Position numbers and translations under genes: made by a program. This document shows, piece by piece, positions 8,857 to 36,774 of a stretch of DNA of 64,000 nucleotides. The notes beneath the pieces are model-generated. The model saw only the letters and a program-made list of their open reading frames with translations, did no database searches and had not been told where the DNA came from. Within the stretch, counting starts at the first letter, position 1. Every line of letters begins with the position of its first letter. This stretch comes from Acidimicrobiales bacterium (lineage in GTDB: Bacteria; Actinomycetota; Acidimicrobiia; Acidimicrobiales; CATQHL01), in NCBI GenBank assembly GCA_965206165.1, contig OZ242194.1, forward strand, positions 3,513,881-3,577,880, read 5' to 3'.

Positions 8857-9654
8857 GTGCGGAATCCGGGCGACTTCTTGTTGGAGAATCTCGGCGGTGG
8901 CGTCTGGGGCCACGACGCCGACGAAAGCTGGTGGGGCTTCAACGGCCTGTTCGGCGGCTACCTCGTCAGCCTGGCCGCGCTGGCGTGTGAGGCGACCGTG
9001 GCCGACCCCGACCGCCCGCTGCGCAGCATCACCATGCAGTTCCTGCGGCCCGCGCCCGCCGGGCGCCTGCTTATCGAGGTCACGACCGAGCGGGCAGGGC
9101 GCTCCGTCTGGTTCCTCTCGGGACGGATCACGGCGGAGGGAAAGCTCTGCGCCCTGTTCCTGGTCGTCGCCGCGACCGATCAGGACGGCCAGGAATTCAC
9201 GAACCGGACGATGCCCGAAGTCCCCGCGTTCGAGGAGAGCAGCGACAACGCCGCTCCTCGCATCTTCGCCCTCCCGGTGTTCGACCACTTCGAGGAGCGG
9301 GAGATCCACCGCGACGGTTCCAGCGTGCTCGTCTGGGTCCGCCCGAACTACCCAACGGAGATCGACCTGTCGCTGGTTCTCATGGCTTGCGACGTGATCC
9401 CACCGGTTGCCATCGGTCGCGTGAGCGATCCCCACTTGGCCGGGACCATCACGCTCACCGCGAACCTCCGCTCACCGCTGCCGGTGCCCGCGAGCGCCGG
9501 TGCGCCGGTGCTGGTGGAGTTGCACACTTCGTCATCGACCGGAGGCCACGTGGACGAGACGGCCCTCGCCTGGTCCCCGGACGGGCAACTCCTCGCAGAG
9601 AGCCACCAGGTCCGCTTCCTGCGCCGAGCCCAAGAGGGATTCATCGGCCACTGA
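8857..9654 (+). CDS. acyl-CoA thioesterase-like (double hot-dog, TesB-like) protein
   Basis: 3' part of ORF 8476..9654. GFNGLFGGYLVSLAALACEA...ITMQFLRPAPAG...VWVRP...LVLMACDVIPP resembles thioesterase-like superfamily proteins. Start set at in-frame GTG 8857, because the upstream ORF part is Arg/Pro-rich. The start is uncertain. Confidence 0.6.
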   Translation: MRNPGDFLLENLGGGVWGHDADESWWGFNGLFGGYLVSLAALACEATVADPDRPLRSITMQFLRPAPAGRLLIEVTTERAGRSVWFLSGRITAEGKLCALFLVVAATDQDGQEFTNRTMPEVPAFEESSDNAAPRIFALPVFDHFEEREIHRDGSSVLVWVRPNYPTEIDLSLVLMACDVIPPVAIGRVSDPHLAGTITLTANLRSPLPVPASAGAPVLVELHTSSSTGGHVDETALAWSPDGQLLAESHQVRFLRRAQEGFIGH

Positions 9655-10285
9655 GAATGCGCAGCACGAGATCCTCGATGCTCGTCTCGACGGCGAGCCC
9701 ATCGCGCTCCCGGAGCCACTCGAGATTGCGGCGATGCACGATGTCCTCGGACCGATACCGGTTGAGGAACACGGTGAGACTCGAGGTCCCGAGCACGCCG
9801 GCCCCAAGACGGGTGGCATCGATCGCCCCGAGCCCGGCGTCGGCCACGAGCAGCACCCGGTCGGCGACGAGTGCGCCGATGAGATCGCTACTGTCGCCAT
9901 CATCGGCAAGTGGTGACCGCACGCCGCCAACCGTCTCGACGAATCCGAAGTCCGGTGCGGGCGATGGCCATTGGAGTTCATCCAGCAGTTCCGCCAGCTT
10001 GGGAGGCACCTGGCCGAGCAGGGAGGCCGCGATCGGCGGCGCCATCGCCTCGGGGTACCACCGGTGCGCCGGGCACACCGCCTGCGGATGCTCGCCGGTC
10101 GCCGCAGCGAGTACCTCGGCGTCGGTCGCGCCGATGTCGTCGGGCGTGTAGGACTGCACCGGCTTGCGCGCGCCAACCGCCAGACCCCGGCCACGGAGAC
10201 TCCCGAGGACCCCGGCGGTGAGCCAGGTCTTGCCAACACCGGTGGCCGTGCCGGCGACGGCGACGAGCACCGAGGGCCGGGTCAT
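9641..10285 (-). CDS. bioD: dethiobiotin synthetase
   Basis: Lower part of ORF 9641..10831. MTRPSVLVAVAGTATGVGKTWLTAG contains the P-loop. ATGA overlap with the bioF stop. Last gene of the bio array. Confidence 0.9.
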   Translation of the reverse strand: MTRPSVLVAVAGTATGVGKTWLTAGVLGSLRGRGLAVGARKPVQSYTPDDIGATDAEVLAAATGEHPQAVCPAHRWYPEAMAPPIAASLLGQVPPKLAELLDELQWPSPAPDFGFVETVGGVRSPLADDGDSSDLIGALVADRVLLVADAGLGAIDATRLGAGVLGTSSLTVFLNRYRSEDIVHRRNLEWLRERDGLAVETSIEDLVLRILSGR

Positions 10286-11430
10286 CTGCAAACCCCGATC
10301 CGCTCCAGGGCTCCGATCAGACGGTCGACCATGTCGTCGGTGTGGGCGGCCGACAGGGCGACGCGGAGTCGCGAGGTGCCCGCCGGCACGGTCGGAGGAC
10401 GGATGGCCGGTACGAGGAAGCCCTCGTCGAGGAGAGACTCGGCCACACGAACGGCGCGAGCCTCCGAACCCACGATGATCGGCACGATCGGGGACGGATG
10501 ACCGGGACGCAGGCGGTCGGTGAGTCGCCGAAGACGAGCGATGAGCGAGGCTCCTTCGGGGTTCCGCGAGATGCGGATGGCCTCGAGCGCGGCAGCGGCG
10601 TCGGCAGGAGCCAGTCCAGTGGAGAAGATGAATGGTCGGGCCCGGTTCACGAGGAGATCGACAAGGGGACCCGGACCGCACACCGCCCCGCCGAGCGAAC
10701 CCAGGGCCTTCGAGAGGGTGACGACGCGGAGCATCCGGAGCCGCTCGAGCTCCGCGAGTGCGCTGAGCGACGGACCGAACACCGAGTGCGCCTCGTCGAT
10801 CACCAGCAGGGCGCCGCGGCGCGCGCAGCACTCACCGAGCGCGACGACATCGGCCTCGTCGCCGTCCATCGAGAAGACCGCGTCGGTGACAACCATCGTT
10901 CTCGGCGCCTCGGCTCCGCCGAGCAGCTGGTCGACGTGACCGACGTCGTTGTGCCGCGCGATCGCGATCGGCGACCGGCTGAGGCGGCAGCCGTCGATGA
11001 TCGAAGCATGGTTCAACTCGTCGCTGACGACGAGGCAGTCGGGGCCGCCGAGGGTGGCGAGCACGCCGAGGTTCGCGGCATACCCCGTGGGGAAGACCAG
11101 GGCTCGCGCCGTCTTCTTCCAGTCGGCCAGTTCGACCTCCAGATCGGCGTGGACGGGGCGGGACCCGACGACGAGCCGGCTCGCCGTGGCACCGGTCCCC
11201 CAACGATCCAGCGCGGCGTGGGCCGCGCCGATCACGTCGGGGTGACACGAGAGTCCGAGGTAGTCGTTGGACGCAAAGGAGATCACCTCCCGGCCCGCGA
11301 GATGTCCCACTGGTCCCCTGGCGTCGAACGTCCGCACGTCTCGCCACTGGTCGGCGGCGCGGATCGTGCCGAGTTGCTCGCCGGCCCAGGCTTCGAAGTC
11401 CCGGTGCGCCGGGGTGGCCGACCCCGTCAT
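10282..11430 (-). CDS. bioF: 8-amino-7-oxononanoate synthase
   Basis: ORF 10282..11541, start at ATG 11430 (ATGA overlap with the bioA stop). SNDYLGL motif. PLP-lysine context VVTLSKALGSLGG. Confidence 0.9.
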   Translation of the reverse strand: MTGSATPAHRDFEAWAGEQLGTIRAADQWRDVRTFDARGPVGHLAGREVISFASNDYLGLSCHPDVIGAAHAALDRWGTGATASRLVVGSRPVHADLEVELADWKKTARALVFPTGYAANLGVLATLGGPDCLVVSDELNHASIIDGCRLSRSPIAIARHNDVGHVDQLLGGAEAPRTMVVTDAVFSMDGDEADVVALGECCARRGALLVIDEAHSVFGPSLSALAELERLRMLRVVTLSKALGSLGGAVCGPGPLVDLLVNRARPFIFSTGLAPADAAAALEAIRISRNPEGASLIARLRRLTDRLRPGHPSPIVPIIVGSEARAVRVAESLLDEGFLVPAIRPPTVPAGTSRLRVALSAAHTDDMVDRLIGALERIGVCR

Positions 11431-12776
11431 GAGAGAGCCTCGGCCGCATCGACCATGGCGCCGGTGATGCGGCGCAGATCTTCGGCGGTGCTGATGTAGG
11501 GCGGCATCGTGTAGAGAAGCCGCCCGAAGGGGCGCAGCCACACTCCCCGGTCGAGGAGAAGCTCCTGTGTCGCGGCGGCGGGCACCGGGTCAACCGTCTC
11601 GATCACGCCGATGGCCCCGAGCACCCGCACGTCGGCCACACCCGCCAGCGTGGCGGCCGGCGCCAGTCCTGTCTCGAGGGCTTCTGCAATCGAGGCCACC
11701 TCGCCGGCCCAGGGCCTCGACAGAAGCAGCCGGACAGAAGCCAGGGAGACGGCGGCCGCCAGGGGATTGCCCATGAAGGTGGGTCCGTGCATGAGCGCCC
11801 CGGACTCCGCGGCGCTGACCCCCGCGGCCACTTCTGCGGTGCACAGCGTCGCCGCCATGGACAGGTAGCCGCCGGTGAGTGCCTTGCCGACGCACATTAT
11901 GTCGGGGCGGATCCCGGCGTGGTCGCAGCCGAACAACCTGCCCGATCTGGCGAAGCCGGTGGCGATCTCGTCGGCGATGAGCAGCGTGCCGTGCTCGTCG
12001 CAGAGTCGTCGGACCTCCCGGAGATACTCCGGGGAGTAGAAGCGCATCCCGCCGGCGCCCTGAACGACCGGCTCGAGAATGACGGCGGCGATCTCGTCAC
12101 AGTGGTCAGCGAGCAGCCCGGCGAACCCGGCGATGTGGTTGGCACCGAAGGGTTGGCCGAAGCGAGGCTCGGGAGCCGGGGCGAACAGTTGGGGAGGAAG
12201 GACGCCGGCGAACATCGAGTGCATCCCGGTCACCGGGTCGCAGACCGACATGGCCCCCAACGTGTCGCCGTAGTAGCCCGAGGCGACGGTGAGCAGGCGC
12301 GTCCGCTCGGGCCGGCCGGTGCCGCGTGCGTACTGCAGTGCCATCTTGATGGCGACCTCCACGGACACCGAGCCGGAGTCGGCGAAGAAGACGTGCTCGA
12401 GCCCGGCCGGAACGATCTCGACGAGCAACTCGGCGAGTTCGACCGCGGCGGGGTGCGTGATGCCGCCGAACATGACGTGGGCGACCGCCTCCAGCTGTTT
12501 GCGAATGGCCTCATCGAGAACCGGGTGGCGATGCCCGTGGATGGCAGCCCACCACGACGACATACCGTCGATGGCCTGCCGCCCGTCGGCCAGGTGGAGC
12601 GTGGTGCCTTCGGCGGCCACGACGGGGACCGCCGGAGAGACCGACGGCATCGGGGCGTAGGGGTGCCAGACCCGTTTCCGATCGCGCGCAACCAGATCAA
12701 GGTGCTTCCGGTGCTGAACCTCGCCCGGATCGACGGTGCGGGCAGCACCCTTGGCTACCGCATCGCCGGTGGTCAT
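11427..12776 (-). CDS. bioA: adenosylmethionine-8-amino-7-oxononanoate aminotransferase
   Basis: ORF 11427..12941, start at ATG 12776. Class-III aminotransferase motifs SSWWAAIHGHRHP, DEIATGFARSGRLFG, CVGKALTGGY. Confidence 0.9.
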   Translation of the reverse strand: MTTGDAVAKGAARTVDPGEVQHRKHLDLVARDRKRVWHPYAPMPSVSPAVPVVAAEGTTLHLADGRQAIDGMSSWWAAIHGHRHPVLDEAIRKQLEAVAHVMFGGITHPAAVELAELLVEIVPAGLEHVFFADSGSVSVEVAIKMALQYARGTGRPERTRLLTVASGYYGDTLGAMSVCDPVTGMHSMFAGVLPPQLFAPAPEPRFGQPFGANHIAGFAGLLADHCDEIAAVILEPVVQGAGGMRFYSPEYLREVRRLCDEHGTLLIADEIATGFARSGRLFGCDHAGIRPDIMCVGKALTGGYLSMAATLCTAEVAAGVSAAESGALMHGPTFMGNPLAAAVSLASVRLLLSRPWAGEVASIAEALETGLAPAATLAGVADVRVLGAIGVIETVDPVPAAATQELLLDRGVWLRPFGRLLYTMPPYISTAEDLRRITGAMVDAAEALS

Positions 12777-12993: not shown

Positions 12994-14022
12994 TCAGATC
13001 ACGCCGGAGAGGGCGCCGATCGGCATCGCCAGATCATCGAGCATCCGTAGGTCCTCGTCGGGCTGGCGGCCCAGGGTGGTGAGATAGTTGCCGACGATCA
13101 GGGCGTTGATGCCGGCCGTCATGCCCATGGCCTGATATTCCCGCAGGGTGATCTCCCGGCCCCCGGCGTAGCGGAGAATCACGCCGGGAAGAGCCAGTCG
13201 GAACAGGGCTATCCAGCGCAAGGCTTCGAGCGGCCGGAGCGGCTTGCGAATCTGCAGCGGCGTGCCGGGACGCGGGTTCAGGAAGTTGAGCGGCACCTCT
13301 GCCGGCTCGAGCGACTGGAGTTGCCCCAACAGCTCGACCCGCTGGGCGACGCTCTCCCCCATGCCGAGAAGCGCCCCGCAGCACAGTTCCATGCCGTGCC
13401 GGCGGACCAGGAGGCACGTCTCGAAACGCTCCTCCCAGGTGTGGGTGGTGACGATACGACCGAAGAAGCTCCGCGATGTCTCCAGGTTGTGGTTGTAGCG
13501 GTGCACACCGCCGGCGGCCAGCCGCCGCGCCTGGTCGTCGGTGAGGATGCCTGCGCTCACCGCGACGTTCAGACCGGTCTCGGCTTCGATGAGCGGCACC
13601 AGCGAGATGATCCGCTGCAGCGTGCGCTCGTCGGGACCCCGAACGGCCAGGACCATGCAGAACTCGCTGGCCCCCGTCCGGGCCGTCTCTTGCGCCGCGG
13701 CGAGTACTTCGTCGGTGTCGATGAACGGTGTCGCCGGCAGTGTCTCGGAGAAGCGGGCCGACTGGGAACAGAAGTGGCAGTCCTCGGGGCAGCCGCCCGT
13801 CCTCACCGACAAGATGCCCTCGATCTCGACGGTCGGACCGCACCACTCGAGGCGGACCGCATGCGCCAGCGCCGCAAGCGCCGGGACATGCTCGTCGTTG
13901 AGGCGGGCCAGGGAGTCCAACTCCTCGGCACCCAGGAGGCGGCGCTCATCGAGCAGGGCGCCCTCGGCGCACCGCAGCAATTGCCGAGCCGTCGCAGCAG
14001 CACCGGTGGGGGCGGAATGCAC
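12994..14022 (-). CDS. bioB: biotin synthase (radical SAM)
   Basis: ORF track 342 aa. Radical-SAM cluster motif CPEDCHFCSQS. The GTG start shares one base with the TAG stop of the upstream KipA-like gene. Confidence 0.93.
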   Translation of the reverse strand: MHSAPTGAAATARQLLRCAEGALLDERRLLGAEELDSLARLNDEHVPALAALAHAVRLEWCGPTVEIEGILSVRTGGCPEDCHFCSQSARFSETLPATPFIDTDEVLAAAQETARTGASEFCMVLAVRGPDERTLQRIISLVPLIEAETGLNVAVSAGILTDDQARRLAAGGVHRYNHNLETSRSFFGRIVTTHTWEERFETCLLVRRHGMELCCGALLGMGESVAQRVELLGQLQSLEPAEVPLNFLNPRPGTPLQIRKPLRPLEALRWIALFRLALPGVILRYAGGREITLREYQAMGMTAGINALIVGNYLTTLGRQPDEDLRMLDDLAMPIGALSGVI

Positions 14023-14990
14023 TACCCGACCGCCTCTCGGAGGCCATGGAGTCGGGCGGTCCGGTCCCGGCGGGCACCAAGGGCCGTCTGGAGGTCGACC
14101 TCGACGAACCGGGTCGTGATATTCGGCGCCGACTGGCCGACGTGGTCCATGTCGGCGCTGATAACGGTCCCCACCATGACGTAGCCGCCGCCGGACACGG
14201 CGTCGCGGTGCAGCACGATCGGTTCGACCCCGCCGGGGATCTGGATCGATCCGATGGGGTACGGGGCATCGACGATGTTGGAAGGATCGCTGCCTGCGCC
14301 GAACGGCGCAACACGATCACGGAAGTCGAGCACGGCCCCCCGGTAGCGGAATCCGGTCCGGTCGGCGACGGGCGTGAGACGCCACTCGGTCTCAAGGAAT
14401 GTCCGGCGGGCGGCGTCGGTGAGACGATGGTCGTAGAGGCCCATCATCACCCTGATCTCACGATGACGCGGATGCGTACTTCGCAGCTCCTCGGGAACGG
14501 ACCGGCCCGGCGCGACACCATCGTGGTGGCCGATCGGGAGCTCGTCGCCCGCCACAAGAGGTCCGCCGTGCAGTCCGCCGAGCGCCCCGAGAGCGTAGGT
14601 CGAGCGGCTGCCGAGCACCGCCGGCACGGCGAAGCCGCCGCTGACGGCGATGTAGGCCCGCGCCCCGGAGGCCAGGAAGTCGAACGACAGAACGTCACCC
14701 GCGCCGACGGCGAAACTCTCCCAGGTCGGTCGGGGCCCACCGTTGAGCCGCGGCGGAAGCTCGGCTCCGGTCACGGCCACGGTGGTCGACTGGTCGAAAC
14801 GCAGCTCGGGCCCCATGTAGGTGCATTCCAGGACGGCCGCTTCGTCGCTATTGCCGACCAGGATGTTGGCAGCCACCGACGAGTACTGGTCGAGCGACCC
14901 CGACGGGGGGATGCCCACGTTGTAGTAGCCCGGCCGGCCCGTGTCCTGGACGGTGGTGGCGATGCCGGGCACCAGGACGCTAACTCCCAT
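14022..14990 (-). CDS. KipA / PxpC family protein (allophanate hydrolase subunit 2 family, carboxyltransferase-like)
   Basis: ORF track 322 aa. MGVSVLVPGIATTVQDTGRPGYYNVGIPPSGSLDQYS...AYIAVSGGF...GDELPIG is typical of KipA/PxpC. Confidence 0.85.
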   Translation of the reverse strand: MGVSVLVPGIATTVQDTGRPGYYNVGIPPSGSLDQYSSVAANILVGNSDEAAVLECTYMGPELRFDQSTTVAVTGAELPPRLNGGPRPTWESFAVGAGDVLSFDFLASGARAYIAVSGGFAVPAVLGSRSTYALGALGGLHGGPLVAGDELPIGHHDGVAPGRSVPEELRSTHPRHREIRVMMGLYDHRLTDAARRTFLETEWRLTPVADRTGFRYRGAVLDFRDRVAPFGAGSDPSNIVDAPYPIGSIQIPGGVEPIVLHRDAVSGGGYVMVGTVISADMDHVGQSAPNITTRFVEVDLQTALGARRDRTARLHGLREAVG

Positions 14991-15873
14991 GGAGAACCTC
15001 CATCAGGCCGCGGTTGTACCCGCCGGGATCGGCCAGGAACTCGCCCAGCGAGAACTCCACGGGCGCCTGCTTGAACCGGAACCGCCTCGCGGTCACCTGG
15101 GCCGTCAACTCGTCGTAAGCCTCCCGGTCGATGGGCTCGAACTTCGCAATTGTCCCCGGTTTGAAGAACACCAGGAAGTCGTCGAAGTCGGGGTGGGTCT
15201 GGGTCGGGTCGTAGATCGGAGCCGGCGTGATGCCGAACATCTGGTACCCGCCCGCGCCGCGCACCGAGTAGATGCACCCGAAGCAGCCGCCGTGGCCGAT
15301 CGTCTGGCGCGGGGTGTCGGTCCGCGGCGTGAGGTACTTCGGGACCTCGAGTTGGCGCTCCCGCGGCACCATCTGGAACAGGAACGGCAGGCCGGCCACG
15401 AAACCGACCATCGACGTGAACCAGGGCGAGCCCGAGTGGGCGGCGATGAAGCCGTCCACCGAGTCGAATCCGTTGATCCGGGCGGCGTACTCGAGGTCGG
15501 TGCCGTCGGGGTTCTGGTGATGCGACCGGAACCGCATGAGGGTCTCGCGGGTCCAGGGGTCGTTGTAGAGGACCGGCACCTCGACAATGCTCGTCTGCAG
15601 GTCGAACCCGGTGCCGTCACCGACCTCCGCCTCGATCGATTCGAGTTCACCGAGAAGATCCAGCGGTTCGATGCGATCGGGGTCGAAGCGGACCTGATAC
15701 GAGGCGTTGGCCGGGCAGATGTCGATCACACCGTCGATACCGCGGTCGCCGAGAGTGGAGGTGATCGCCATCACCTTGAAATTTGCCTCGAGGTTCATCT
15801 CCTCGTCGAGTTCGACGTAGAGATGGTCGTCCCCGCCGAAGCTGTGCCGGGTCGTGGACCGGCCGTTTCTCAC
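14980..15873 (-). CDS. KipI / PxpB family protein (allophanate hydrolase subunit 1 family)
   Basis: Lower part of ORF 14980..16236. Start GTG 15873 lies 13 nt after the biotin carboxylase stop, with AAGGGGA in between. DDHLYVELDEEMNLEANFKV...ICPANASYQVRFDP...GCFGCIYSVRGAGGYQMFG. Confidence 0.85.
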   Translation of the reverse strand: MRNGRSTTRHSFGGDDHLYVELDEEMNLEANFKVMAITSTLGDRGIDGVIDICPANASYQVRFDPDRIEPLDLLGELESIEAEVGDGTGFDLQTSIVEVPVLYNDPWTRETLMRFRSHHQNPDGTDLEYAARINGFDSVDGFIAAHSGSPWFTSMVGFVAGLPFLFQMVPRERQLEVPKYLTPRTDTPRQTIGHGGCFGCIYSVRGAGGYQMFGITPAPIYDPTQTHPDFDDFLVFFKPGTIAKFEPIDREAYDELTAQVTARRFRFKQAPVEFSLGEFLADPGGYNRGLMEVLHGS

Positions 15874-15886
15874 CGTCTGTCCCCTT

Positions 15887-17242
15887 TCACGTTCCGAGCC
15901 AGCGCTCGACAAAGCCGGTGTCGTAACTGCCGTCGACCACTTCGGGGGTCGACAGTAGGTCGCCAATGAGCGGGGCCGTCGTCTTGATGCCGACAATCCG
16001 CAGTTCGCGCATCGCCCGGCGGGCGCGCGCCAGAGCAGCCGGCCGGTCGACATCCCAAACAATGATCTTGGCGATGAGAGAGTCGTAGAAGGGCGGTACG
16101 GCGCTGCCCGGCCGCATTGTGGTCGAGGTGCGGACCCCGGGGCCCGCCGGCAGGTCGATGTCACGGATCGTTCCCGGGCAGGGCATGAAGCCGTTGGCCG
16201 GATCCTCGGCGTTGATGCGCATCTCGATCGCCGCACCCCTCGGCTTCACATCCTCCTGAGTGAACGAGATGGGGAGGCCGCCGGCTTGGCGGAACTGCTC
16301 GCGCACCAGGTCGAGCCCGCAGATCATCTCGGTCACCGGGTGCTCCACCTGGATCCGGGTGTTCATCTCGATGAAGAAGAACTCCTCGGTGGCACTGTCG
16401 ACGAGGAACTCGACGGTCCCGGCACCCTCGTAGGCGACCGCGTCGGCGAGTGCCAGCGCGGCGGTGTGCAGGCCGGCACGAACCGCAGGGCTCAGGCTGG
16501 AGGCGAGGGCCTCCTCGATCAGCTTCTGGCGCCTGCGCTGCAGAGAACACTCGCGCTCGAACAGGTGGATCGCGCGGTCACCGTCGCCGAACACCTGCAC
16601 CTCGACGTGGCGGGCGCTGGGGATGTAGCGCTCGAGATACAGGCCGTCGTCGCCGAAGGCAGCCCGGGCCTCGTTCCGTGCGGCAGTGATACAACCAGCC
16701 AGATCGTCCGACTGTTCCACGATACGGATCCCGCGGCCGCCGCCGCCTGCGGAAGCCTTGACCAGCAGCGGGAAGCCGATCGTCGCCGCCGCCTCCGTCG
16801 CTTCCTGAACCGAGCCGATCCCACCTGCGGTGCCGGGTACGACCGGCACGCCGACCGACGCGGCCGTCTCCCGTGCCGCCGCCTTGTCGCCCATCAGCGA
16901 GATGGCCTCAGGCCGCGGTCCCACGAAGCGCAGACCCAACGCAGCGCAGCGTGCCGCGAATGCCGCGTTCTCCGACAGGAACCCGTAGCCCGGATGGATG
17001 GCGTCGCAGCCCGCCGCCAGGGCGGCACCGATGATGGCGTCCGCGTCGAGGTAGCTCCGCGACGCGGGCGGAGGGCCGATCTCGACGGCCTCGGTGGCGA
17101 GACGCACGTGACCGGCATCCCGATCGGCCTCGGAGTACACCGCGACGGTGTCGAGCCCGAGTTCCTCCGCGGCTCGGATGACCCGCATGGCGATCTCGCC
17201 GCGGTTGGCGACGAGCACCCTTTTCAAGGGACGGGGGCTCAT
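15887..17242 (-). CDS. biotin carboxylase (ATP-grasp, AccC family)
   Basis: ORF 15887..17626, start at ATG 17242 (ATGA overlap with the BCCP stop). MSPRPLKRVLVANRGEIAMRVIRAAEELG...HPGYGFLSENAAFA...EMNTRIQVEHPVTE. Confidence 0.93.
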   Translation of the reverse strand: MSPRPLKRVLVANRGEIAMRVIRAAEELGLDTVAVYSEADRDAGHVRLATEAVEIGPPPASRSYLDADAIIGAALAAGCDAIHPGYGFLSENAAFAARCAALGLRFVGPRPEAISLMGDKAAARETAASVGVPVVPGTAGGIGSVQEATEAAATIGFPLLVKASAGGGGRGIRIVEQSDDLAGCITAARNEARAAFGDDGLYLERYIPSARHVEVQVFGDGDRAIHLFERECSLQRRRQKLIEEALASSLSPAVRAGLHTAALALADAVAYEGAGTVEFLVDSATEEFFFIEMNTRIQVEHPVTEMICGLDLVREQFRQAGGLPISFTQEDVKPRGAAIEMRINAEDPANGFMPCPGTIRDIDLPAGPGVRTSTTMRPGSAVPPFYDSLIAKIIVWDVDRPAALARARRAMRELRIVGIKTTAPLIGDLLSTPEVVDGSYDTGFVERWLGT

Positions 17243-17472
17243 CGGTTGACGGTGAACAGCACCTGGCCGGCGTCGACCATCTCGGCATCGGGGACCTCGA
17301 CGGTGGCGATCGTCCCGGCCACCCCGGCCGGCACGTCGAAGAACTGCTTCATGACCTCGACGAGGGCGACCACGGTGCCGGCCTCGACCGGGCTGCCGAC
17401 ATCCACGAACGGATCGGCCCCCGGCGAGGGGCGCCGGTAGAACACACCGGGAATGGGCGACCTGATGTCCAT
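17239..17472 (-). CDS. biotin carboxyl carrier protein (single biotinyl domain, 77 aa)
   Basis: ORF 17239..17559, start at ATG 17472 with GGGAGGA upstream. MDIRSPIPGVFY...VVALVEVMKQFFDVPAGVAGTI contains the biotinyl-lysine motif (V-M-K). Confidence 0.88.
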   Translation of the reverse strand: MDIRSPIPGVFYRRPSPGADPFVDVGSPVEAGTVVALVEVMKQFFDVPAGVAGTIATVEVPDAEMVDAGQVLFTVNR

Positions 17473-17474
17473 GC

Positions 17475-17879
17475 TCACGGGTGTCCTCCCACGGTCGGAC
17501 CGTCCTCGGGCTGCGGAGGCTGCAGCGCGTAGTCCCACACCTTGGCGATGATCTGCCACCTGCCGTCCTCGCGCACGAACACCAACTCGTCGATGAACAC
17601 CTTCGGCAGGTAGGCGAGCCGGGCACGCACGTGGGCCGTGACCGGTGTCGCCGAACTCAGCGAGAGCAACTCGTCGAAACGGTCGTCCTCCCGGGCAGCG
17701 GGAGACGGCCGGCCGCCAATCAGGGCCAGGTACGCCTCCTTGTCGATGGTCAGTCCGTCCCGCCGGCAGACAAGGCGGATCTCGGGATGAAGGACCGATC
17801 CCAGCAGTTCGACGTCGCCGTGGTGGATCCCGTCGAAATAGGCGGCCATCGCCTCGGTGAGTTCGCTGATCGCGCTCAT
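17475..17879 (-). CDS. NTF2-like (SnoaL / lumazine-binding-like) protein
   Basis: ORF 17475..17954, start at ATG 17879 (ATGA overlap with the upstream stop). MSAISELTEAMAAYFDGIHHGDVELLGSVLHPE...VFVREDGRWQIIAKVW is the usual NTF2-family pattern. Confidence 0.7.
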   Translation of the reverse strand: MSAISELTEAMAAYFDGIHHGDVELLGSVLHPEIRLVCRRDGLTIDKEAYLALIGGRPSPAAREDDRFDELLSLSSATPVTAHVRARLAYLPKVFIDELVFVREDGRWQIIAKVWDYALQPPQPEDGPTVGGHP

Positions 17880-18598
17880 GAGAGGTACGGGGCGAGCGCC
17901 GCCCTGACGGCGGCGGCCAGCTCGACGGCGCCGGGAGTGTCGGAGTGGACGCACACCACGTCGGCCCGCATCGGTATCTCGGTCCCGTCGTTGGCGACCG
18001 CCACGTTCTCGGTCACCGCCCGGACAGCGCCGGCGGCCGCCTCGCCGGGATCGACAGCGACGTGCTCGCGGGTGATGATCAGGCCACCGTCGGGCCGGTA
18101 CTCCAGGTCGGTGTAGTACTCGGCGTAGAAGCCCTGGGGCCTTTCACCCCAGACCTCCTCGTGGGTGGTGTTCGCCATGCCCATGAGGGGGACGTCGAAG
18201 GCGTCGGCGGCGGCGGCGACCGCCGCGGCCACGTCGGGGTCGCGGGCCGCCTGGCCGTAGAGAGCGCCATGGGCCTTGATGTAGCCGAGTTGCATCCCTT
18301 CGGCGGCCAGAAAACCGCTGAGGGCACCGGCCTGGTAGATCACCGCGGCCGTTAGTTCCTCCGGATCCATGGCCATGGCCCGGCGGCCGAAACCCTGCAG
18401 ATCCGGATAGGAGGGGTGCGCCCCCACCGTGACCCCATGCCGCTTGGCCAGCCGCACGGTCCGCTGCATGACGCTGGGATCGGAGGCGTGGAAACCGCAC
18501 GCCACGTTGGCCATGTCGAGGTACGGCATGATGGCGTCGTCGTCGCCGCAGCGGTAGATGCCGTATGCCTCGCCCATGTCACAGTTGATTGCGACCAT
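17876..18598 (-). CDS. LamB/YcsF (PxpA) family protein
   Basis: ORF track 240 aa. MVAINCDMGEAYG...MANVACGFHASDPSVMQRTVRLAKRHGVTVGAHPSYPDLQGFGRR is a strong LamB/YcsF signature. Confidence 0.9.
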   Translation of the reverse strand: MVAINCDMGEAYGIYRCGDDDAIMPYLDMANVACGFHASDPSVMQRTVRLAKRHGVTVGAHPSYPDLQGFGRRAMAMDPEELTAAVIYQAGALSGFLAAEGMQLGYIKAHGALYGQAARDPDVAAAVAAAADAFDVPLMGMANTTHEEVWGERPQGFYAEYYTDLEYRPDGGLIITREHVAVDPGEAAAGAVRAVTENVAVANDGTEIPMRADVVCVHSDTPGAVELAAAVRAALAPYLS

Positions 18599-18616: not shown

Positions 18617-18952
18617 CTAGGGTCTTGCGGTCTTGGGTGAGTCGCCGCCGGGGTCGACGAAGACGTCATCGCCCCTGATCTCGGCGGGATAGTTGGCGAT
18701 CTCGGCGTGGTCGGGGTTGATGCCCCGGCAGGTCACGAGATCGAACTCCCAGAGATGCTGGCTGCAGATCAAGGTGTTCTTGTAGAGGTCACCCTCCACG
18801 AGCGCCACCCTCTGGTGGGGACAGTAGGCCTGGGTGGCGCGCACGATGCCACCGTCAAGATGCGCCACGAGCACCTCGGTGCCGTCCACCTCGAAGACCC
18901 CCATGTCGCCTTCCCACAGGTCATCGAGGCTACAGACGCGGGCGAACGCCAT
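18617..18952 (-). CDS. Rieske [2Fe-2S] ferredoxin of multicomponent monooxygenase (TmoC-like)
   Basis: ORF track 111 aa. MAFARVCSLDDLWEGDMGVFEVDGTEVLV...CPHQ...CSQHLWEF. By my recollection it is close to T4MO ferredoxin throughout. Confidence 0.9.
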   Translation of the reverse strand: MAFARVCSLDDLWEGDMGVFEVDGTEVLVAHLDGGIVRATQAYCPHQRVALVEGDLYKNTLICSQHLWEFDLVTCRGINPDHAEIANYPAEIRGDDVFVDPGGDSPKTARP

Positions 18953-18996: not shown

Positions 18997-19992
18997 CTAG
19001 CCGTCACTGGCCGCGAGGCCGACGCTGTGGTGGAACTCACGCATCGACGCCGCCCCGGTCGCGGCGCTGCCGGGAACGTCCGGAAGCGCTCCGACGAAGG
19101 ATTCGAGAGCGGACACCCCATGCGGGGTCCAGGCGTCGAGCCACTCCAGCAGCTGCGCCCGATTCGACTCGACGCCGAGCATGTGGCCGACAAGGGCCTG
19201 CGCCCAGCGCCGCGACCGGTCACCGTCCCGCAGAGCCGCCTCGGCCATCAGCGCCAGCAGCGTGTCATCGTTGCGCCGCGCGCTCTGCGCCATCGCCCGA
19301 TGGAAGCCTTCGGAGATCGCCGGCAGCGCCACCAGGTTCAATGCGACGAAGGCCTCCGCCCAGTCGTAGGTGACCAGGGTCCGCTCCATCAGTTCCCGGT
19401 AGCCCTGCCAGGCCGAAGCGTTCTCCCACGCGGCGCGTTCGCTATCGCCGAACGACCGGTCGGGGTGCGCCTTCGCCAGCGACGCCGTCCGGTAGGCGAT
19501 CCGGGACAACCAGCGCAGTGCATCGGCGGTCTGGAAGGCCGCGCAGTTGCAGATCGTGCTGGCGGGCGCCATGTGCACGAGGTAGGCCGAGGCCATCTGG
19601 CTGGTGTGGATCAGGTACCGCCCGGGGGTGTACAGAGCCTCGAGCGCGTCGAGCCAGGCGCCGGGAAGGCTCTCGTCGTGTCCCTCGCTGTCGTACTGAT
19701 CCGCCAGCCCGTCGACATAGGACTCCTGGCCGTCCTGGAGGATGTTGTACGTGCGGTAGACCATCTCGTCGGGATCGCGGAACGAATCCCAGTCGTCGTG
19801 CGTGATCGGGCTGTTGTCGCGGTAGCGCATCACCCAGTCGTTCATGAAGCTGGCGCCCTCGACCTCGAATGGCACCTGCTCGCCCCGGGCGTGCCAGAGC
19901 AGACCGGTCGAGACGATCTCGTACTCCGACGGCCGCCGGCGCTGGCCGACCAGATGACTCCACGTTCTGAGCGGCTTGAGTACCTCAGTCAT
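18997..19992 (-). CDS. soluble diiron monooxygenase hydroxylase beta subunit (TmoE-like)
   Basis: ORF track 331 aa. N-terminus LKPLRTWSHLVGQRRRPSEYEIVS is characteristic of toluene/alkene monooxygenase beta subunits. Confidence 0.88.
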   Translation of the reverse strand: MTEVLKPLRTWSHLVGQRRRPSEYEIVSTGLLWHARGEQVPFEVEGASFMNDWVMRYRDNSPITHDDWDSFRDPDEMVYRTYNILQDGQESYVDGLADQYDSEGHDESLPGAWLDALEALYTPGRYLIHTSQMASAYLVHMAPASTICNCAAFQTADALRWLSRIAYRTASLAKAHPDRSFGDSERAAWENASAWQGYRELMERTLVTYDWAEAFVALNLVALPAISEGFHRAMAQSARRNDDTLLALMAEAALRDGDRSRRWAQALVGHMLGVESNRAQLLEWLDAWTPHGVSALESFVGALPDVPGSAATGAASMREFHHSVGLAASDG

Positions 19993-20275
19993 GGCGTTCT
20001 CCCAGGTAGAAACGAATCACTTCGGTCGAGGTGTCGATCCGGCCCGCGAAGCTGGGCATGTTCGCCTCGAGTTCGTGCAGCTTGAACGGCCGTCCCAGCT
20101 CCCGTTCGACCGAGGCACGGGTGATCACGCACTCGCCCTCGACCTGGATCCGGACGTACGAACCGCGGTCCACAACGTTGACCGCCCGCCCGGCGTTGTC
20201 CTCCTCAGCAGCCGCCACAACGGCTCGGGCAACCTCACCGCTCTGGATCACGGGACCGACGGTGCCGACGCTCAT
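19985..20275 (-). CDS. monooxygenase effector/coupling protein (MmoB/DmpM family, TmoD-like)
   Basis: ORF 19985..20278. Start is ATG 20275 or GTG 20278, both overlapping the upstream TGA, with GAGGAGG upstream. VGPVIQSGEVARAVV...DRGSYVRIQVEGECVITRASVERELGRPFKLHELEANMPSFAGRI. Confidence 0.9.
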   Translation of the reverse strand: MSVGTVGPVIQSGEVARAVVAAAEEDNAGRAVNVVDRGSYVRIQVEGECVITRASVERELGRPFKLHELEANMPSFAGRIDTSTEVIRFYLGERHD

Positions 20276-20532
20276 CACGCCTCCTCGTAGTAGAAGTCGA
20301 GTGTCTGGGTTGGCGCCAGACCGGCTTCGGCCACCGTCATGTCCAGCGGCAGCGGCTCGGTCTCGCCCGCTTTCCGGGCACGGATGACCCCGCCCTCACC
20401 GGCGACGTGCAGGCCGATCACGTTCTCCGTCGCCGCCTCGGCGACCTGGGCCATGGTGTGCTCGGTGTCGACGACGAGAAGCTTCAGCACGAAGTCCCCG
20501 TAGAAGTTCACCGAGAGTGGGAATGCTGCCAT
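20275..20532 (-). CDS. TmoB-like small (gamma) subunit of toluene/alkene monooxygenase
   Basis: ORF track 85 aa. MAAFPLSVNFYGDFVLKLLVVDTEHTMAQVAEA parallels the TmoB N-terminus as I recall it. Confidence 0.8.
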   Translation of the reverse strand: MAAFPLSVNFYGDFVLKLLVVDTEHTMAQVAEAATENVIGLHVAGEGGVIRARKAGETEPLPLDMTVAEAGLAPTQTLDFYYEEA

Positions 20533-20544
20533 CGGTCGTTCCTC

Positions 20545-22038
20545 CTATGCCGCGTCGGCACTCTCGACATAGGCGGAGACCCACTCGTAGTCGTGGGCGT
20601 CGCCGCCGCCGTCGCTGAGCACGCCGATGCCCATGTACTGGAGCACGCCGCCGAGGTCGGGCGGCTGGATCTCGCCGGCGAGCAGGCGATCAACGATCGT
20701 CTTGTGGGCGGCGTAGCGCTCCGGGTCCTGCTCGAAGATCCAGCGATCGGGCTCCGAGCCGAAGTGGTAGAGCCGCCCGTTGTACTCCAGCGGGTAGTCC
20801 TGGGTCGTCTTGAACGGCGTCCCGACGATCGGGATGTTCGACATGTTGCAGATCATCGGCAACGTGCCGGGAACGGTCCTGGCGATATCGCCCCGCTTGA
20901 GGTTCTCGATGATGACGTCCCAGCACTTGCCGAAGGTGTCGTTCCACCCCGGGTACTTCTCCTCGAGCCAGTCGCGCTCGTCGGGGCCCACACCGGCCGC
21001 CGGCGAGAACCACAGGGTGGGCCGCCACGACCACGTGCCGAGTTGCTGACCGTGGTGATGCTCGTCGATGTCGGCCAGGAACATGTCCCAGTACCAGGGC
21101 TTCGCCAAGCCCAGGTCCTCCAGGCTGTTGACGAACTGCGTGACGATCCACTCTTGCATGAACTCCTTGAACGATCCCTCCCGTTTGTCCAGGGGGATGT
21201 AGTAGTCCATCGGGATGCCCGTCAGGATCGTGAACAACTTCCACGACCGCCAGAACGCCACGTCGACGAGGCGCTGAGCCCGCTCCTTCTCGCCGTTCTC
21301 GATCAGCATCGACAGAATCGGTGTGCCGATCTGGGCGTGGCGGGCCTCGTCGGACTGGATGCTCTGGATCAGCTTGGAGAAGCTGAAGTCCCCGGCGTTG
21401 GCCGCATCCGACGAAAGGCCGATGAACTGCAGGTTGGTGAACCCGGTCTCGAACGCGAAGTTCAACAGGATGGATGTCGAGATCGCGTCGCGGGTCATCA
21501 TCATGTCGTCGAAGAAGTGACGGCCCGCGATGATGCCCCAGTTGTTGGACTTCATGCCCGAATGGGCCCAGTCGAACTGGCGATCCGTCGGTACGTACTC
21601 GTGGGGGAAGAACAACTGGAGTTGCGCGTGGCGGATCTCGTCGAGCATCCCGAACGTGCCCATGTTCCGCATGCCCGGGGACCGGGACCAACGCACGAAC
21701 CGCGACTCCATGAGGGCGGCGTTGTACTCGACGACCGATACCGCGCCGTAGTGGAGTTTCAAGGTGCTGATCCACCCTGGATCCACCTTGGAGCGCAGGT
21801 CCATGCGTTCCAGCGCCGCCTTGACCGAGTAGGCCCCGGCGTCCTTCTGGCGCTGGATGTCGACGTACTCCCGGTAGCTGATCTTGTACGGCTCGTCGTA
21901 GGTGGACCACACCTCGTCGGGAATGTCGTAGTCGCCGCTGTGCCCGGAGGGATACAACTCGTCCTCAGTGACATAGCCGGGTGTCCACTCCGTGCGCCGC
22001 GCGATGTCGTACCACTCGCTCCGCTCGAGCAAAGCCAT
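20545..22038 (-). CDS. soluble diiron monooxygenase hydroxylase alpha subunit (TmoA-like)
   Basis: ORF track 497 aa. Both diiron ligand motifs are present (FGMLDEIRHAQLQ and SIQSDEARHAQIG). N-terminus SEWYDIARRTEWTPGYVTEDELYP. AAGGAGA RBS upstream. Confidence 0.93.
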   Translation of the reverse strand: MALLERSEWYDIARRTEWTPGYVTEDELYPSGHSGDYDIPDEVWSTYDEPYKISYREYVDIQRQKDAGAYSVKAALERMDLRSKVDPGWISTLKLHYGAVSVVEYNAALMESRFVRWSRSPGMRNMGTFGMLDEIRHAQLQLFFPHEYVPTDRQFDWAHSGMKSNNWGIIAGRHFFDDMMMTRDAISTSILLNFAFETGFTNLQFIGLSSDAANAGDFSFSKLIQSIQSDEARHAQIGTPILSMLIENGEKERAQRLVDVAFWRSWKLFTILTGIPMDYYIPLDKREGSFKEFMQEWIVTQFVNSLEDLGLAKPWYWDMFLADIDEHHHGQQLGTWSWRPTLWFSPAAGVGPDERDWLEEKYPGWNDTFGKCWDVIIENLKRGDIARTVPGTLPMICNMSNIPIVGTPFKTTQDYPLEYNGRLYHFGSEPDRWIFEQDPERYAAHKTIVDRLLAGEIQPPDLGGVLQYMGIGVLSDGGGDAHDYEWVSAYVESADAA

Positions 22039-22104: not shown

Positions 22105-22845
22105 TCAGGAGCCGTGCGCCGAGCCGAGCGGCCCCTCGCCGCCCGGATAGCAGAACGAGATCGCCGGTGAGTAGAAGCCGAACGTGACCTCGAGAGGGTC
22201 CGCCGGCCGCAGGTCCCACGTCGGATGGCCCGAGTCGAGGAACTCCAGCGACACAACTTCGAACTCCGCGGCGAAGTCGGCTACGAACGGGTACCGCCCG
22301 CTGACCATCTCACCATCGACTCGGGTGACGTACCGCAGCTGTCCGGTTCCTCGAGCCGGGTTACCGACGACCACGTCGCAGACGGTACGGATGATCGGGT
22401 TCCCTTCGACAATGGTCGTCGCCGTCAGCGTCCCGCCATCGAGGTCCAGATCGGTTCGCCCCTCCGAGATGGGCACCCCGTGGGCCGCGGCGTAGCGGTT
22501 CATGGCGACACTGCTGTTCATGTAGTGGGTCCACCAGCGGGCGGGAACCCCCGCCTCGGTGTCGAGGCCGGCGAGATCGAGCCCCAGATAGGTCAGCGAG
22601 TAGGCGCCGAACGAGTCCGGCTCCCCGGCCGAGGAGATCTGCGACTCGTCGTCGACGACGTACTGGTTCATGTAGCAGAGACTTCCGTCGGTCGGCATCA
22701 ACCCGTCGGGCACGAGCGCGGCGGCTGCGTCCGGATCGGCCGGCTTCCACACGAGGTACAACATCCGAGCATCCGTGATGAGCTGCGGCGCATGCGCGAA
22801 ACCGGTCATTCCGAACTCCTCGACCCGTGTACCGACTACCGACAT
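22105..22845 (-). CDS. hypothetical protein, possibly acetoacetate-decarboxylase-like fold
   Basis: ORF track 246 aa. Its size and the N-terminal pattern ARMLYLVWKPADPDAAAALVPDGLMPTDG... remind me of ADC-superfamily proteins, but the assignment is weak. It is clearly coding, with an RBS and tight packing. Confidence 0.35.
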   Translation of the reverse strand: MSVVGTRVEEFGMTGFAHAPQLITDARMLYLVWKPADPDAAAALVPDGLMPTDGSLCYMNQYVVDDESQISSAGEPDSFGAYSLTYLGLDLAGLDTEAGVPARWWTHYMNSSVAMNRYAAAHGVPISEGRTDLDLDGGTLTATTIVEGNPIIRTVCDVVVGNPARGTGQLRYVTRVDGEMVSGRYPFVADFAAEFEVVSLEFLDSGHPTWDLRPADPLEVTFGFYSPAISFCYPGGEGPLGSAHGS

Positions 22846-23753: not shown

Positions 23754-24458
23754 CTACCCCGCGTCCAGGTCGTCGAGTCGATCGACGTGGACGACGCCGA
23801 GTTCGGCCAGCTTCGCGCCCAGGCCGGCGATGTCGAGGGACAGCTCACCCGCCGCGAGTCGCGCCCGGGTGACCTCCTCGGCGGCCAGGCGCTTGCGGGC
23901 ACCCTCCAACGCCTCGGCCGCCTGCAGCCGGGGCACCACGACCACGCCGTCGTCGTCGGCAACAACCACGTCGCCCGGATGGACGGACTGCTGGCCGAGG
24001 GTGATCGGCACGTTCACCCAGCCGGGCGTGGTCTTCATGGGACCCTGGCAACCGACGTGCTGGGACCACACGCCGAATCCCATGGCGCGGATCGGCTCGA
24101 CGTCGCGCACCGCCCCGTCGGTGATGAGACCCACCCCACCCCGGGCCGCAGTGGACGTGGCCATCAACTCCCCGAACAGGCCGTTGCTGGAGGGTGCGGT
24201 GCTGGCGACCACCAGAACGTCGCCCGGCTCCAAGAGCGCTATTGCGGCGTGGATCATGATGTTGTCGCCGGGGTGGACCAGCACGGTGATCGCCGAGCCG
24301 GCGATCCGGAGACCCTGCTGGAGGGGCCGGATGTGCGAACCCACGAAGCCGTGCCGACCGATCGCCTCGTGCACGGTGGAGGTGTCGATCGAGCGGAATT
24401 CCTCGACCAGCGAACGAGGGGCGCGCTCGACGTTGCGGACGACGACGTTGGGGTTCAT
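23754..24458 (-). CDS. RraA-family protein (4-hydroxy-4-methyl-2-oxoglutarate aldolase / oxaloacetate decarboxylase-like)
   Basis: ORF track 234 aa. PGDVLVVAS...GLFGELMATSTAARGGVGLITDGAVRDV...PGDVVVADDDGVVVVP is the RraA/HMG-aldolase pattern. Confidence 0.8.
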   Translation of the reverse strand: MNPNVVVRNVERAPRSLVEEFRSIDTSTVHEAIGRHGFVGSHIRPLQQGLRIAGSAITVLVHPGDNIMIHAAIALLEPGDVLVVASTAPSSNGLFGELMATSTAARGGVGLITDGAVRDVEPIRAMGFGVWSQHVGCQGPMKTTPGWVNVPITLGQQSVHPGDVVVADDDGVVVVPRLQAAEALEGARKRLAAEEVTRARLAAGELSLDIAGLGAKLAELGVVHVDRLDDLDAG

Positions 24459-36771: not shown

Positions 36772-36774
36772 CGA

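Follow-up and report, generated by a model that had tools for sequence, protein, structure and literature searches.

The stretch of DNA analysed here (the window) comprises 64,000 nucleotides from the genome of an Acidimicrobiales bacterium (contig OZ242194.1, positions 3,513,881 to 3,577,880) and carries six adjacent genes coding for a LamB/PxpA-family hydrolase subunit, a protein of the NTF2 fold, a stand-alone BCCP (biotin carboxyl carrier protein), a biotin carboxylase (BC) and two carboxyltransferase (CT) subunits of the KipI and KipA type. Five of these genes, those for LamB, BCCP, BC, KipI and KipA, form a conserved module which, on balance, is probably an ATP-, bicarbonate- and biotin-dependent hydrolase of small lactams or cyclic amides, and which by analogy could be a split bacterial counterpart of the fungal LamA/LamB pair. 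The mechanism that we infer begins with BC, which would use ATP and bicarbonate to carboxylate the biotin carried by the 77-amino-acid (aa) BCCP. The KipA/KipI pair would then pass the carboxyl group on to the nitrogen of the ring amide, so that the stable lactam becomes an activated N-acyl carbamate, and LamB would hydrolyse the activated C-N bond. Finally, the carbamate would shed CO2, the net reaction being lactam + ATP + H2O -> amino acid + ADP + Pi. In the window, the module would provide the ring-opening step of a 16-kb catabolic operon.

Gene content and conservation of the module

In an earlier note on this DNA it was claimed that six translationally coupled genes lie between positions 18598 and 14022. 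Their coordinates and families were confirmed in our analysis (Table 1), and neighbouring genes overlap or are separated by spacers of 2-13 nt. ATGA overlaps join the LamB stop codon to the NTF2 start codon and the BCCP stop codon to the BC start codon, a 2-nt spacer separates the NTF2 and BCCP genes, and a 13-nt spacer with a Shine-Dalgarno-like AAAGGGGA lies between BC and KipI, 5' of the GTG start of the latter. The KipI and KipA genes overlap by 11 nt, and the stop codon of KipA overlaps the GTG start of bioB by 1 nt (GTAGTG). The G+C content of the window is about 70%. The six-gene arrangement is real and not due to chance, since about 80 species-level genomes have LamB-BCCP-BC-KipI-KipA in this order.

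The BC is complete in its motifs, with the glycine loop KASAGGGGRG and EMNTRIQVEHPVTE; it passes model NF006367 (score 618, cut-off 597) and falls just below NF009471 (658, cut-off 686). The LamB protein passes the PxpA subfamily models NF003814 (263.6, cut-off 226) and NF003816 (236, cut-off 213), lies below the cut-off in all three PxpA equivalog models, and has as its closest solved relatives the UPF0271 proteins 2DFA and 1V6T. With the urea carboxylase model TIGR02712 (urea_carbox), the KipI-like protein scored 102 bits, as against 69.8 bits with the PxpB model TIGR00370 (cut-off 145.55), and the KipA-like protein 228 bits, as against 182.1 bits with the PxpC model NF045499 (cut-off 500); the latter protein also passes TIGR00724 (248, cut-off 230). 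Its best PDB match was the urea carboxylase of K. lactis (3VA7), where it aligned to residues 479-789 and the KipI-like protein to residues 842-1088. Taken singly, the four separate proteins reach 25-501 bits with TIGR02712, all short of its cut-off of 1303.85. Judged by sequence, KipI and KipA of the module are closer to urea carboxylase than to PxpBC, and the scores and the 3VA7 match uphold the earlier description of a multi-subunit, urea-carboxylase-like biotin enzyme with a LamB hydrolase.

Two other explanations are touched by these scores. It might be proposed that the module does the work of PxpABC, converting 5-oxoproline into glutamate, with ATP coupled through biotin. 5-Oxoproline is a gamma-lactam, the LamB protein passes two PxpA subfamily models, and the NCBI name given to relatives is "5-oxoprolinase subunit B family protein". 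However, KipI and KipA remain far below the Pxp equivalog cut-offs (70 against 145.55 and 182 against 500) and score higher with urea carboxylase, the genes that neighbour the module indicate a GABA-type product and oxygenase-derived substrates and not glutamate, P. putida uses separate paralogues for 5-oxoproline and for butyrolactam, and one related locus (L029) has a second, divergent KipI/KipA pair beside its module; a biotin-assisted 5-oxoprolinase therefore seems quite unlikely. The second pair of L029, an Actinomycetota metagenome-assembled genome (MAG), lies at 8-1527 on the opposite strand about 6 kb upstream of the module (28% and 43% identity), and is probably an ordinary PxpBC paralogue. 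In the same locus, the BC gene is broken into four frame-shifted pieces.

It might also be proposed that the module is a split urea or guanidine carboxylase which serves nitrogen assimilation, as its CT subunits are most like the CT of urea carboxylase, relatives are annotated as "urea carboxylase" by JGI, and Amycolatopsis loci have an amidase-signature gene about 1.8 kb downstream of KipA. Relatives are also found in the databases under the name "allophanate hydrolase subunit". Nevertheless, allophanate hydrolase, carboxyguanidine deiminase and a urea or guanidine transporter are all missing from the annotations of the window, and an Rfam scan of the whole window found no guanidine riboswitch, nor any other riboswitch or RNA family. 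LamB would be without a role in those pathways, the KipA/KipI homologues of M. smegmatis lack urea carboxylase activity, and the module of the window is embedded in an aromatic-oxygenase operon. On this evidence, such a nitrogen-assimilating role is very improbable.

When one genome per species was searched with the KipI-like protein, 220 relatives were obtained; 80 loci with a KipI identity of 64-97% were retained, and every gene of the window was scored against these loci. The LamB-BCCP-BC-KipI-KipA order was found to be kept in Acidimicrobiia, Pseudonocardia, Amycolatopsis, Streptomyces and Saccharopolyspora, and also in Solirubrobacterales, Chloroflexota and Alpha- and Betaproteobacteria. 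Acidimicrobiales MAGs come closest to the window, the KipI of CAXXMX010000010.1 being 97% identical to that found here. LamB, which the earlier note had taken for an extra part of the enzyme, was present in every full-length related locus and is thus an invariant core member of the module. In 78 related loci a BCCP gene, usually accompanied by a BC gene, lies between LamB and KipI, and the biotinylation motif E-[VI]-M-K is invariant in all 78 BCCPs. This linkage, together with the invariant motif, makes the long form of KipI (about 295 aa) look obligately linked to BCCP.

The BC gene is absent from seven loci which keep the 77-aa BCCP (six of them from Acidimicrobiia and one proteobacterial), and likewise from one metagenome contig; the sequences without it are L009, L011, L012, L013, L018, L020, L076 and L090. 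A BC encoded elsewhere is apparently able to serve the module in these cases. That another BC must serve there could favour the explanation that BC and BCCP are parts of the housekeeping acetyl-CoA carboxylase which came by chance to lie between pxpA and pxpBC, as could the titles of the NCBI models that match the two proteins, which name them as acetyl-CoA carboxylase components. Against this stand the translational coupling of the genes and the minimal 77-aa BCCP, which fits the dedicated 80-aa model NF005457, while the housekeeping carboxylases of actinobacteria use alpha subunits in which BC and BCCP are fused. Furthermore, the five-gene order is conserved across phyla and P. aeruginosa has PA0492-0496, apparently an operon of the same type, besides accBC, which indicates that BC and BCCP are a dedicated paralogue set and not the acetyl-CoA carboxylase of the cell; we regard the chance arrangement as extremely improbable.

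The genes that follow KipA are also informative. In the window and in related Acidimicrobiia loci bioB comes directly after KipA; bioB, or bioB with bioAFD, takes this place in Acidimicrobiia, in one uncultured Actinomycetota MAG and in one Amycolatopsis, and bioY does so in one Chloroflexota locus and in metagenome contig L132. Genes of biotin supply have thus been placed after KipA in independent ways, which speaks well, if indirectly, for a real dependence of the module on biotin. The bioA/bioF and bioF/bioD junctions of the window are ATGA overlaps, and the products of bioBAFD would provide the cofactor.

Table 1. Genes of the co-directional string in the window, listed from the module downstream to bioD and then upstream to the DLH-family gene
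Feature	Position	Strand	Remarks
LamB/PxpA-family amide (lactam) hydrolase subunit	18598..17876	minus	240 aa; PF03746 E=1.9e-86
NTF2-fold protein (Lumazine_bd_2/DUF4440)	17879..17475	minus	134 aa; PF12893 E=1e-21
Stand-alone BCCP	17472..17239	minus	77 aa; PF00364 E=1.2e-16; NF005457 104.7 > 87; EVMKQ motif
BC	17242..15887	minus	451 aa; Biotin_carb_N + CPSase_L_D2 + Biotin_carb_C
KipI-like CT subunit (subdomains C-D), long form	15873..14980	minus	GTG start; 297 aa; PF02682 E=4.7e-37
KipA-like CT subunit (subdomains A-B)	14990..14022	minus	322 aa; PF02626 E=8e-85
bioB, biotin synthase	12994..14022	minus	TIGR00433 352 > 225; GTG start
bioA	11427..12776	minus	TIGR00508 547 > 405; start uncertain, open reading frame reaches 12941
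bioF-like, 8-amino-7-oxononanoate synthase	10282..11430	minus	PF00155; TIGR00858 379 bits < cut-off 426
bioD-like, dethiobiotin synthase	9641..10285	minus	PF13500; TIGR00347 61 bits < cut-off 83
Rieske ferredoxin (TmoC/TouC type)	18617..18952	minus	PF00355 E=3.9e-15; 18 nt upstream of LamB
Diiron monooxygenase beta subunit	18997..19992	minus	PF02332 E=3e-65
MmoB/DmpM-type effector protein	19985..20278	minus	PF02406 E=8.4e-28
TmoB-type gamma subunit	20275..20532	minus	PF06234 E=8.2e-22
Diiron monooxygenase alpha subunit	20545..22038	minus	726 bits vs 1T0Q_A, full length
Acetoacetate-decarboxylase-fold (ADC-fold) protein	22105..22809	minus	234 aa; first gene of monooxygenase block; no significant Pfam match
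NAD-binding beta-hydroxyacid-dehydrogenase-like protein	22868..23665	minus	PF03446 + PF09130
RraA-like 4-carboxy-4-hydroxy-2-oxoadipate aldolase / oxaloacetate decarboxylase	23754..24458	minus	PF03737; NF006731 278 > 179
Dienelactone-hydrolase (DLH)-family protein	24455..25135	minus	PF01738 E=1.3e-39; ATG at 25135 after GAGGAGG

Upstream contexts and the monooxygenase operon

Three kinds of genes were found directly upstream of LamB, and each could feed the module in its own way. In the first context, seen in 17 loci including the window, LamB follows a diiron monooxygenase (SDIMO) that resembles toluene/o-xylene monooxygenase (ToMO); these loci belong to the Acidimicrobiales clade of the window, to Amycolatopsis, Streptomyces and Saccharopolyspora, and to some Pseudonocardia. 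In the second, represented by 24 Pseudonocardia-type loci, a molybdenum hydroxylase takes this place, with a few bases between the end of its 789-aa large subunit and LamB. The third consists of an ABC transporter (19 loci from Proteobacteria, Chloroflexota and other Acidimicrobiales). In a further group of Acidimicrobiia, which by their isolate names appear to be sponge-associated, the genes for the DLH-family, RraA-like and dehydrogenase proteins abut LamB with no monooxygenase between them.

In two of the transporter loci the binding protein was checked, and found to be TorT-like (NF008185, 410 and 365 bits, cut-off 200), suggesting that the imported compound is small, polar and nitrogen-containing and not a sugar. 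Examples of the transporter are those of L059 (2032-7504), L087 (3749-7591), L086, L071 and L080. A cupin gene lies alongside in eight loci of this context, and PucR-type regulators or an aldehyde dehydrogenase in some. Genes for 4-aminobutyrate (GABA) transaminase were present in L059, L076 and L083 (TIGR00700 596, cut-off 506.65, as tested in L059). Transporter, GABA transaminase and aldehyde dehydrogenase make up the gene set expected for a route from 2-pyrrolidone through GABA to succinate semialdehyde, and 2-pyrrolidone-like compounds would fit as imported substrates. Molybdenum hydroxylases make lactams from N-heterocycles or cyclic imines, and in the second context the lactam would be the product of the hydroxylase.

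In the window, the alpha subunit of the monooxygenase scores 726 bits against TouA of ToMO (1T0Q) and 707 bits against TmoA of T4MO. It keeps each of the six iron ligands (E104, E134, H137, E197, E231 and H234), and its pocket is hydrophobic (V100, V103, A107, F176, L192, F196, T201 and F205). As the pocket has stayed hydrophobic, the substrate is predicted to be a small, rather apolar aromatic compound. A tblastn search with an Amycolatopsis reductase as query found no TmoF/TouF-type reductase in the 64-kb window; in the actinomycete loci (Amycolatopsis, Streptomyces) a reductase gene is present between the beta subunit and Rieske genes. The gene string between 9 and 25 kb, from bioD to the DLH-family gene, is a 16-kb co-directional operon on the minus strand, with no terminator-like site within these limits in a promoter and terminator scan that was otherwise uninformative.

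Of the 17 SDIMO-linked genome loci, 16 have the gene for the ADC-fold protein at the head of the SDIMO block, and this protein is highly conserved, with more than 1400 relatives at 64-96% identity. While a sequence search of the PDB gave nothing useful, the AlphaFold2 (AF2) model (pLDDT 88.7) had only members of the ADC superfamily among its top 24 Foldseek matches. A role as Schiff-base decarboxylase was ruled out, as an alignment of 21 sequences holds no invariant lysine.

How the monooxygenase and the module might work together is a matter on which two proposals differ. In the first, the module would act as a true carboxylase and fix CO2 into the product of the monooxygenase (a phenol, enol or ketone), giving a stable acid for the RraA-type enzyme, with LamB and the NTF2-fold protein as accessories. 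The close similarity of the SDIMO to toluene/o-xylene monooxygenase and its hydrophobic pocket would agree with this, as would the RraA-like neighbour, which passes the model for 4-carboxy-4-hydroxy-2-oxoadipate aldolase/oxaloacetate decarboxylase, the ADC-fold protein at the head of the block, and the lack of a ring-cleavage dioxygenase among the annotated genes of the operon. On the other hand, CTs of the KipA/KipI type are known only for the N-carboxylation of urea and guanidine, LamB, which comes from a family of amide hydrolases, always accompanies the module, and the ADC-fold protein has no Schiff-base lysine. In other genomes, modules of 64-70% identity have as neighbours either molybdenum hydroxylases or an ABC transporter for small molecules with a GABA transaminase. 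The closest functional precedents, fungal lamA/lamB and P. putida PP_2920-2, which the earlier note did not mention, likewise point, by analogy, to lactam hydrolysis and not to net carboxylation, and we consider a true carboxylase unlikely.

In the second proposal, which keeps the module as a lactam hydrolase, the ToMO-like monooxygenase would hydroxylate a small hydrophobic, probably nitrogen-containing aromatic ring (pyrrole- or pyridine-like) beside the nitrogen, giving a lactim and its lactam tautomer. The unsaturated lactam would be transiently N-carboxylated and opened by LamB, and the NTF2-fold protein, or in actinomycetes a 4-oxalocrotonate tautomerase (4-OT) family protein, would handle the unsaturated enamine or enol that results, or else the carbamate. 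The remaining steps of the pathway would fall to three enzymes, an RraA-type aldolase/decarboxylase, an NAD-dependent dehydrogenase and a DLH-family hydrolase. If the opened enamine or enol product needs a tautomerase, this would explain why 4-OT or NTF2 genes are found only in SDIMO-linked loci and why no transaminase is found there. As a whole, such an aerobic and so far undescribed route for N-heteroaromatic rings, which would do without a ring-cleavage dioxygenase, tautomerise the enamine by NTF2 or 4-OT and release ammonia without a transaminase, is tentative and more doubtful than the lactam hydrolase activity itself. Several close relatives appear, again by isolate names, to be sponge-associated Acidimicrobiia, and the natural substrates might for this reason derive from sponge (bromo)pyrrole alkaloids.

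Outside the operon, three features of the window were recorded. An 861-aa protein with 14 RCC1 repeats is encoded at 28938-31523 on the minus strand, in a stretch whose strand composition is unusual (at 30-32 kb the GC skew is -0.24 and the AT skew +0.24). A 932-aa open reading frame at 33976-36774, also on the minus strand, has no annotation beyond a sub-threshold match to the PTPS_related membrane-protein family. Between 62001 and 64000 the G+C content goes down to 0.58, from about 0.70 elsewhere in the window.

The NTF2-fold protein

The small protein encoded between LamB and BCCP belongs to PF12893 (78.3 bits, gathering threshold 22.1). Its AF2 model (pLDDT 88.5) has the NTF2 fold, with Foldseek TM scores of 0.74-0.84 to 3FKA, and its nearest solved structures are proteins of unknown function; a sequence search of the PDB gave nothing useful, and the exact sequence has no entry in the assembly index. 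Residues conserved in the family are Y14, D22, H31, R35, Y50, a GRPSPA motif, R67, K93, W108 and K113. A role like that of AtzH, an NTF2-fold enzyme acting on N-carboxylated ureas, was considered and is a lead only, not evidence: AtzH came at Foldseek rank 39 with 13% identity.

Orthologues at 68-97% identity are limited to the Acidimicrobiia clade, and the protein in general to one Acidimicrobiales clade and a few metagenomic lineages. The NTF2 gene lies between LamB and BCCP in all six Acidimicrobiales genome loci that are linked to an SDIMO, whereas in all 11 SDIMO-linked actinomycete loci a 4-OT family gene comes directly after KipA, often followed by one for an SRPBCC protein. Each of the 17 SDIMO-linked loci thus has exactly one of the two genes and none has both, and module loci that are negative for SDIMO have neither inside the module. 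This complementarity suggests that one small isomerase-type protein has taken the place of another, non-orthologous one, although the loci are phylogenetically clustered and represent few independent events.

Distant homologues, at 38-53% identity, were collected by a metagenome scan with the family alignment; those beside LamB or KipA in other lineages have 41-53% identity. In two contigs an NTF2 homologue 48-50% identical to that of the window follows LamB behind SDIMO genes, the beta subunit gene in L094 (1-2271) and the Rieske gene in L095 (1-4201). Another comes after KipA in L107, and one after KipA and bioY in L132. Very often the homologues directly follow a class-III aminotransferase gene, with or without genes for HyuA/HyuB of the ATP-dependent hydantoinase/oxoprolinase family, as in the orders aminotransferase-HyuA-HyuB-NTF2 (L089, 2852-8468) and HyuA-HyuB-aminotransferase-NTF2 (L097, L098, L103 and L115-L117). 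An arginase-family gene precedes that for NTF2 in L120 and L122. The NTF2 family therefore travels with two non-homologous types of ATP-dependent ring-amide hydrolase. In L095 the string SDIMO-LamB-NTF2 has no carboxylase genes after it, and for this reason the NTF2-fold protein is probably tied to the chemistry of LamB and is not a structural subunit of the carboxylase. What does come after NTF2 in L095 is a gene for a 348-aa protein without a Pfam family, and one for an AMP-binding enzyme on the other strand.

The earlier proposal that the NTF2-fold protein is an extra subunit of the enzyme is probably not tenable, as the gene is specific to a lineage, has 4-OT in its place in actinomycetes, and accompanies LamB without carboxylase genes in L095. 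The same note had listed the NTF2 insertion, the monooxygenase and the bio genes as additional features of this locus. However, the link to a monooxygenase is shared by 17 of about 80 loci, and the link to biotin supply genes (bioB or bioY) is found in several lineages.

Evaluation and known systems

Several points weigh against our reading of the module as a biotin-dependent lactam hydrolase. We know of no biotin-dependent lactamase that was demonstrated biochemically, and the N-carboxylation step is something we infer. Given the ToMO-like pocket, the natural substrate could be a nitrogen-free arene, which would leave a lactamase without an obvious role in the window. The link to GABA comes from relatives whose KipI is 66-67% identical to that of the window, and the window itself has no aminotransferase besides bioA, and no transporter. 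As described above, seven related loci lack BC, and in L095 neither BCCP nor BC nor KipI/KipA genes follow LamB and NTF2. For the butyrolactam hydrolase PP_2920-2922 of P. putida three subunits were described and biotin was unmentioned (preprint 10.1101/2021.12.09.472016), so that the opening of lactams by this family is not obviously in need of BC and BCCP. Finally, the interaction of mycobacterial KipA/KipI with BCCP was read by its authors as regulatory sequestration (PMC13012033).

The core five-gene operon, a KipA/KipI-type biotin enzyme with a LamB-family hydrolase, is already known without a function; PA0492-0496 of P. aeruginosa bears out the earlier remark that similar clusters occur elsewhere with no function assigned. 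In the literature that we searched, no publication was found on the five-gene module, on an SDIMO in combination with oxoprolinase and biotin, or on toluene monooxygenase in combination with allophanate hydrolase. As far as the searchable literature shows, the following are new: the conserved joining of a toluene-monooxygenase-like operon with the module, the three different "feeder" contexts upstream of it, the complementarity of NTF2 and 4-OT together with the association of NTF2 with both ATP-dependent lactamase families, and the tight translational coupling of the module to a full bio operon.

If the proposed mechanism is right, carboxylation through biotin would be a passing step that activates an amide for hydrolysis, a use which to our knowledge was not shown for any biotin enzyme. 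A function would be given to a module that is found in hundreds of genomes and now goes under divergent names, the genetics of fungal lamA/lamB would be explained, and a catalytic reading of the mycobacterial KipA/KipI-BCCP complex would be suggested. The links to a toluene-monooxygenase-like enzyme, to molybdenum hydroxylases, and to a TorT-like transporter with GABA transaminase offer substrate hypotheses that are concrete and cheap to test, and that have a bearing on the breakdown of lactam solvents, lactam monomers and N-heterocycles.

Among known systems, PxpABC (YbgL/J/K in E. coli, and also found in B. subtilis and C. glutamicum) is alike in joining a LamB/YcsF subunit to subunits of the KipI and KipA families, and in the ATP-driven opening of a gamma-lactam. 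It is thought that PxpBC activates 5-oxoproline with ATP by direct phosphorylation, and PxpA was proposed as the decyclising component (PMC13274462). Unlike the module, PxpABC has neither BC nor BCCP, its PxpB is about 215-230 aa long as against 297 aa for the KipI-like protein here, which exceeds the solved PxpB-type chains (218-228 aa) by about 70 aa, and KipI and KipA of the window fall below the PxpB and PxpC equivalog cut-offs. Urea and guanidine carboxylases, of which the K. lactis enzyme (3VA7, TIGR02712) is an example, combine BC, a CT of the KipA/KipI type and BCCP, and N-carboxylate an amide-type nitrogen. They differ in being one polypeptide of about 1200 aa, where the module has four proteins, and in having no LamB partner; their own partners, allophanate hydrolase or CgdAB, are not among the annotated neighbours in the window.

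The fungal pair, which serves the use of lactams (2-pyrrolidinone), is among the closest precedents for the activity proposed here. LamA of A. nidulans is a urea-carboxylase-like BC-CT-BCCP fusion, and the system resembles the module in pairing such a biotin enzyme with LamB; we know of no reported biochemistry for the pair. Its link to GABA has a parallel in the GABA-transaminase neighbourhood of some relatives of the module, though not in the window itself. LamA is a fusion, the system is eukaryotic and was defined genetically, and it has no oxygenase or NTF2 partner. The lamA and lamB genes were described as lactam catabolism genes co-regulated with GABA genes (PMC8016842).

Bacterial relatives outside the actinomycetes offer two further comparisons. 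In P. putida, growth on butyrolactam genetically requires the PxpABC paralogue PP_2920-2922, which is specific for this lactam, and a separate paralogue, PP_4575-7, serves for 5-oxoproline (preprint 10.1101/2021.12.09.472016). The PA0492-PA0496 genes of P. aeruginosa appear, by their gene descriptions ("biotin-requiring enzyme", "acyl-CoA carboxylase subunit" and three conserved or hypothetical proteins), to be of the same five-gene type; they are distinct from the housekeeping accBC of that organism (PA4847/8), their function is stated as unknown, and unlike the window they have no SDIMO, NTF2 or bio genes. Presumably PA0492 is the LamB homologue and PA0495 and PA0496 are KipI- and KipA-like. 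In M. smegmatis, MSMEG_0435/0436 (PDB 3MML, 9YX5) are free-standing like the CT subunits of the module, and their KipA/KipI complex binds biotin on a BCCP domain, but they have no dedicated BC or BCCP and use the BCCP of AccA3 in trans. This complex was described as "positioned to participate in a carboxylation reaction", and the homologues showed no urea carboxylase activity (PMC13012033).

On the side of the oxygenase, TouABCDEF and TmoABCDEF share with the window the alpha, gamma, effector, beta and Rieske components, the iron ligands and most pocket residues, E103 of ToMO being replaced by V in the alpha subunit of the window. They differ in that the order here is A-B-D-E-C without a reductase, with the ADC-fold gene before the block and the lactamase module after it. 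On the side of the lactamase, the HyuAB-type enzymes (caprolactamase CapAB, OplBA and the eukaryote-type 5-oxoprolinase) also hydrolyse lactams at the expense of ATP, and caprolactamase likewise involves bicarbonate. The valerolactam hydrolase OplBA and its HyuAB relatives are unrelated to the module in sequence, and it is beside HyuAB genes that homologues of the NTF2-fold protein are again found.

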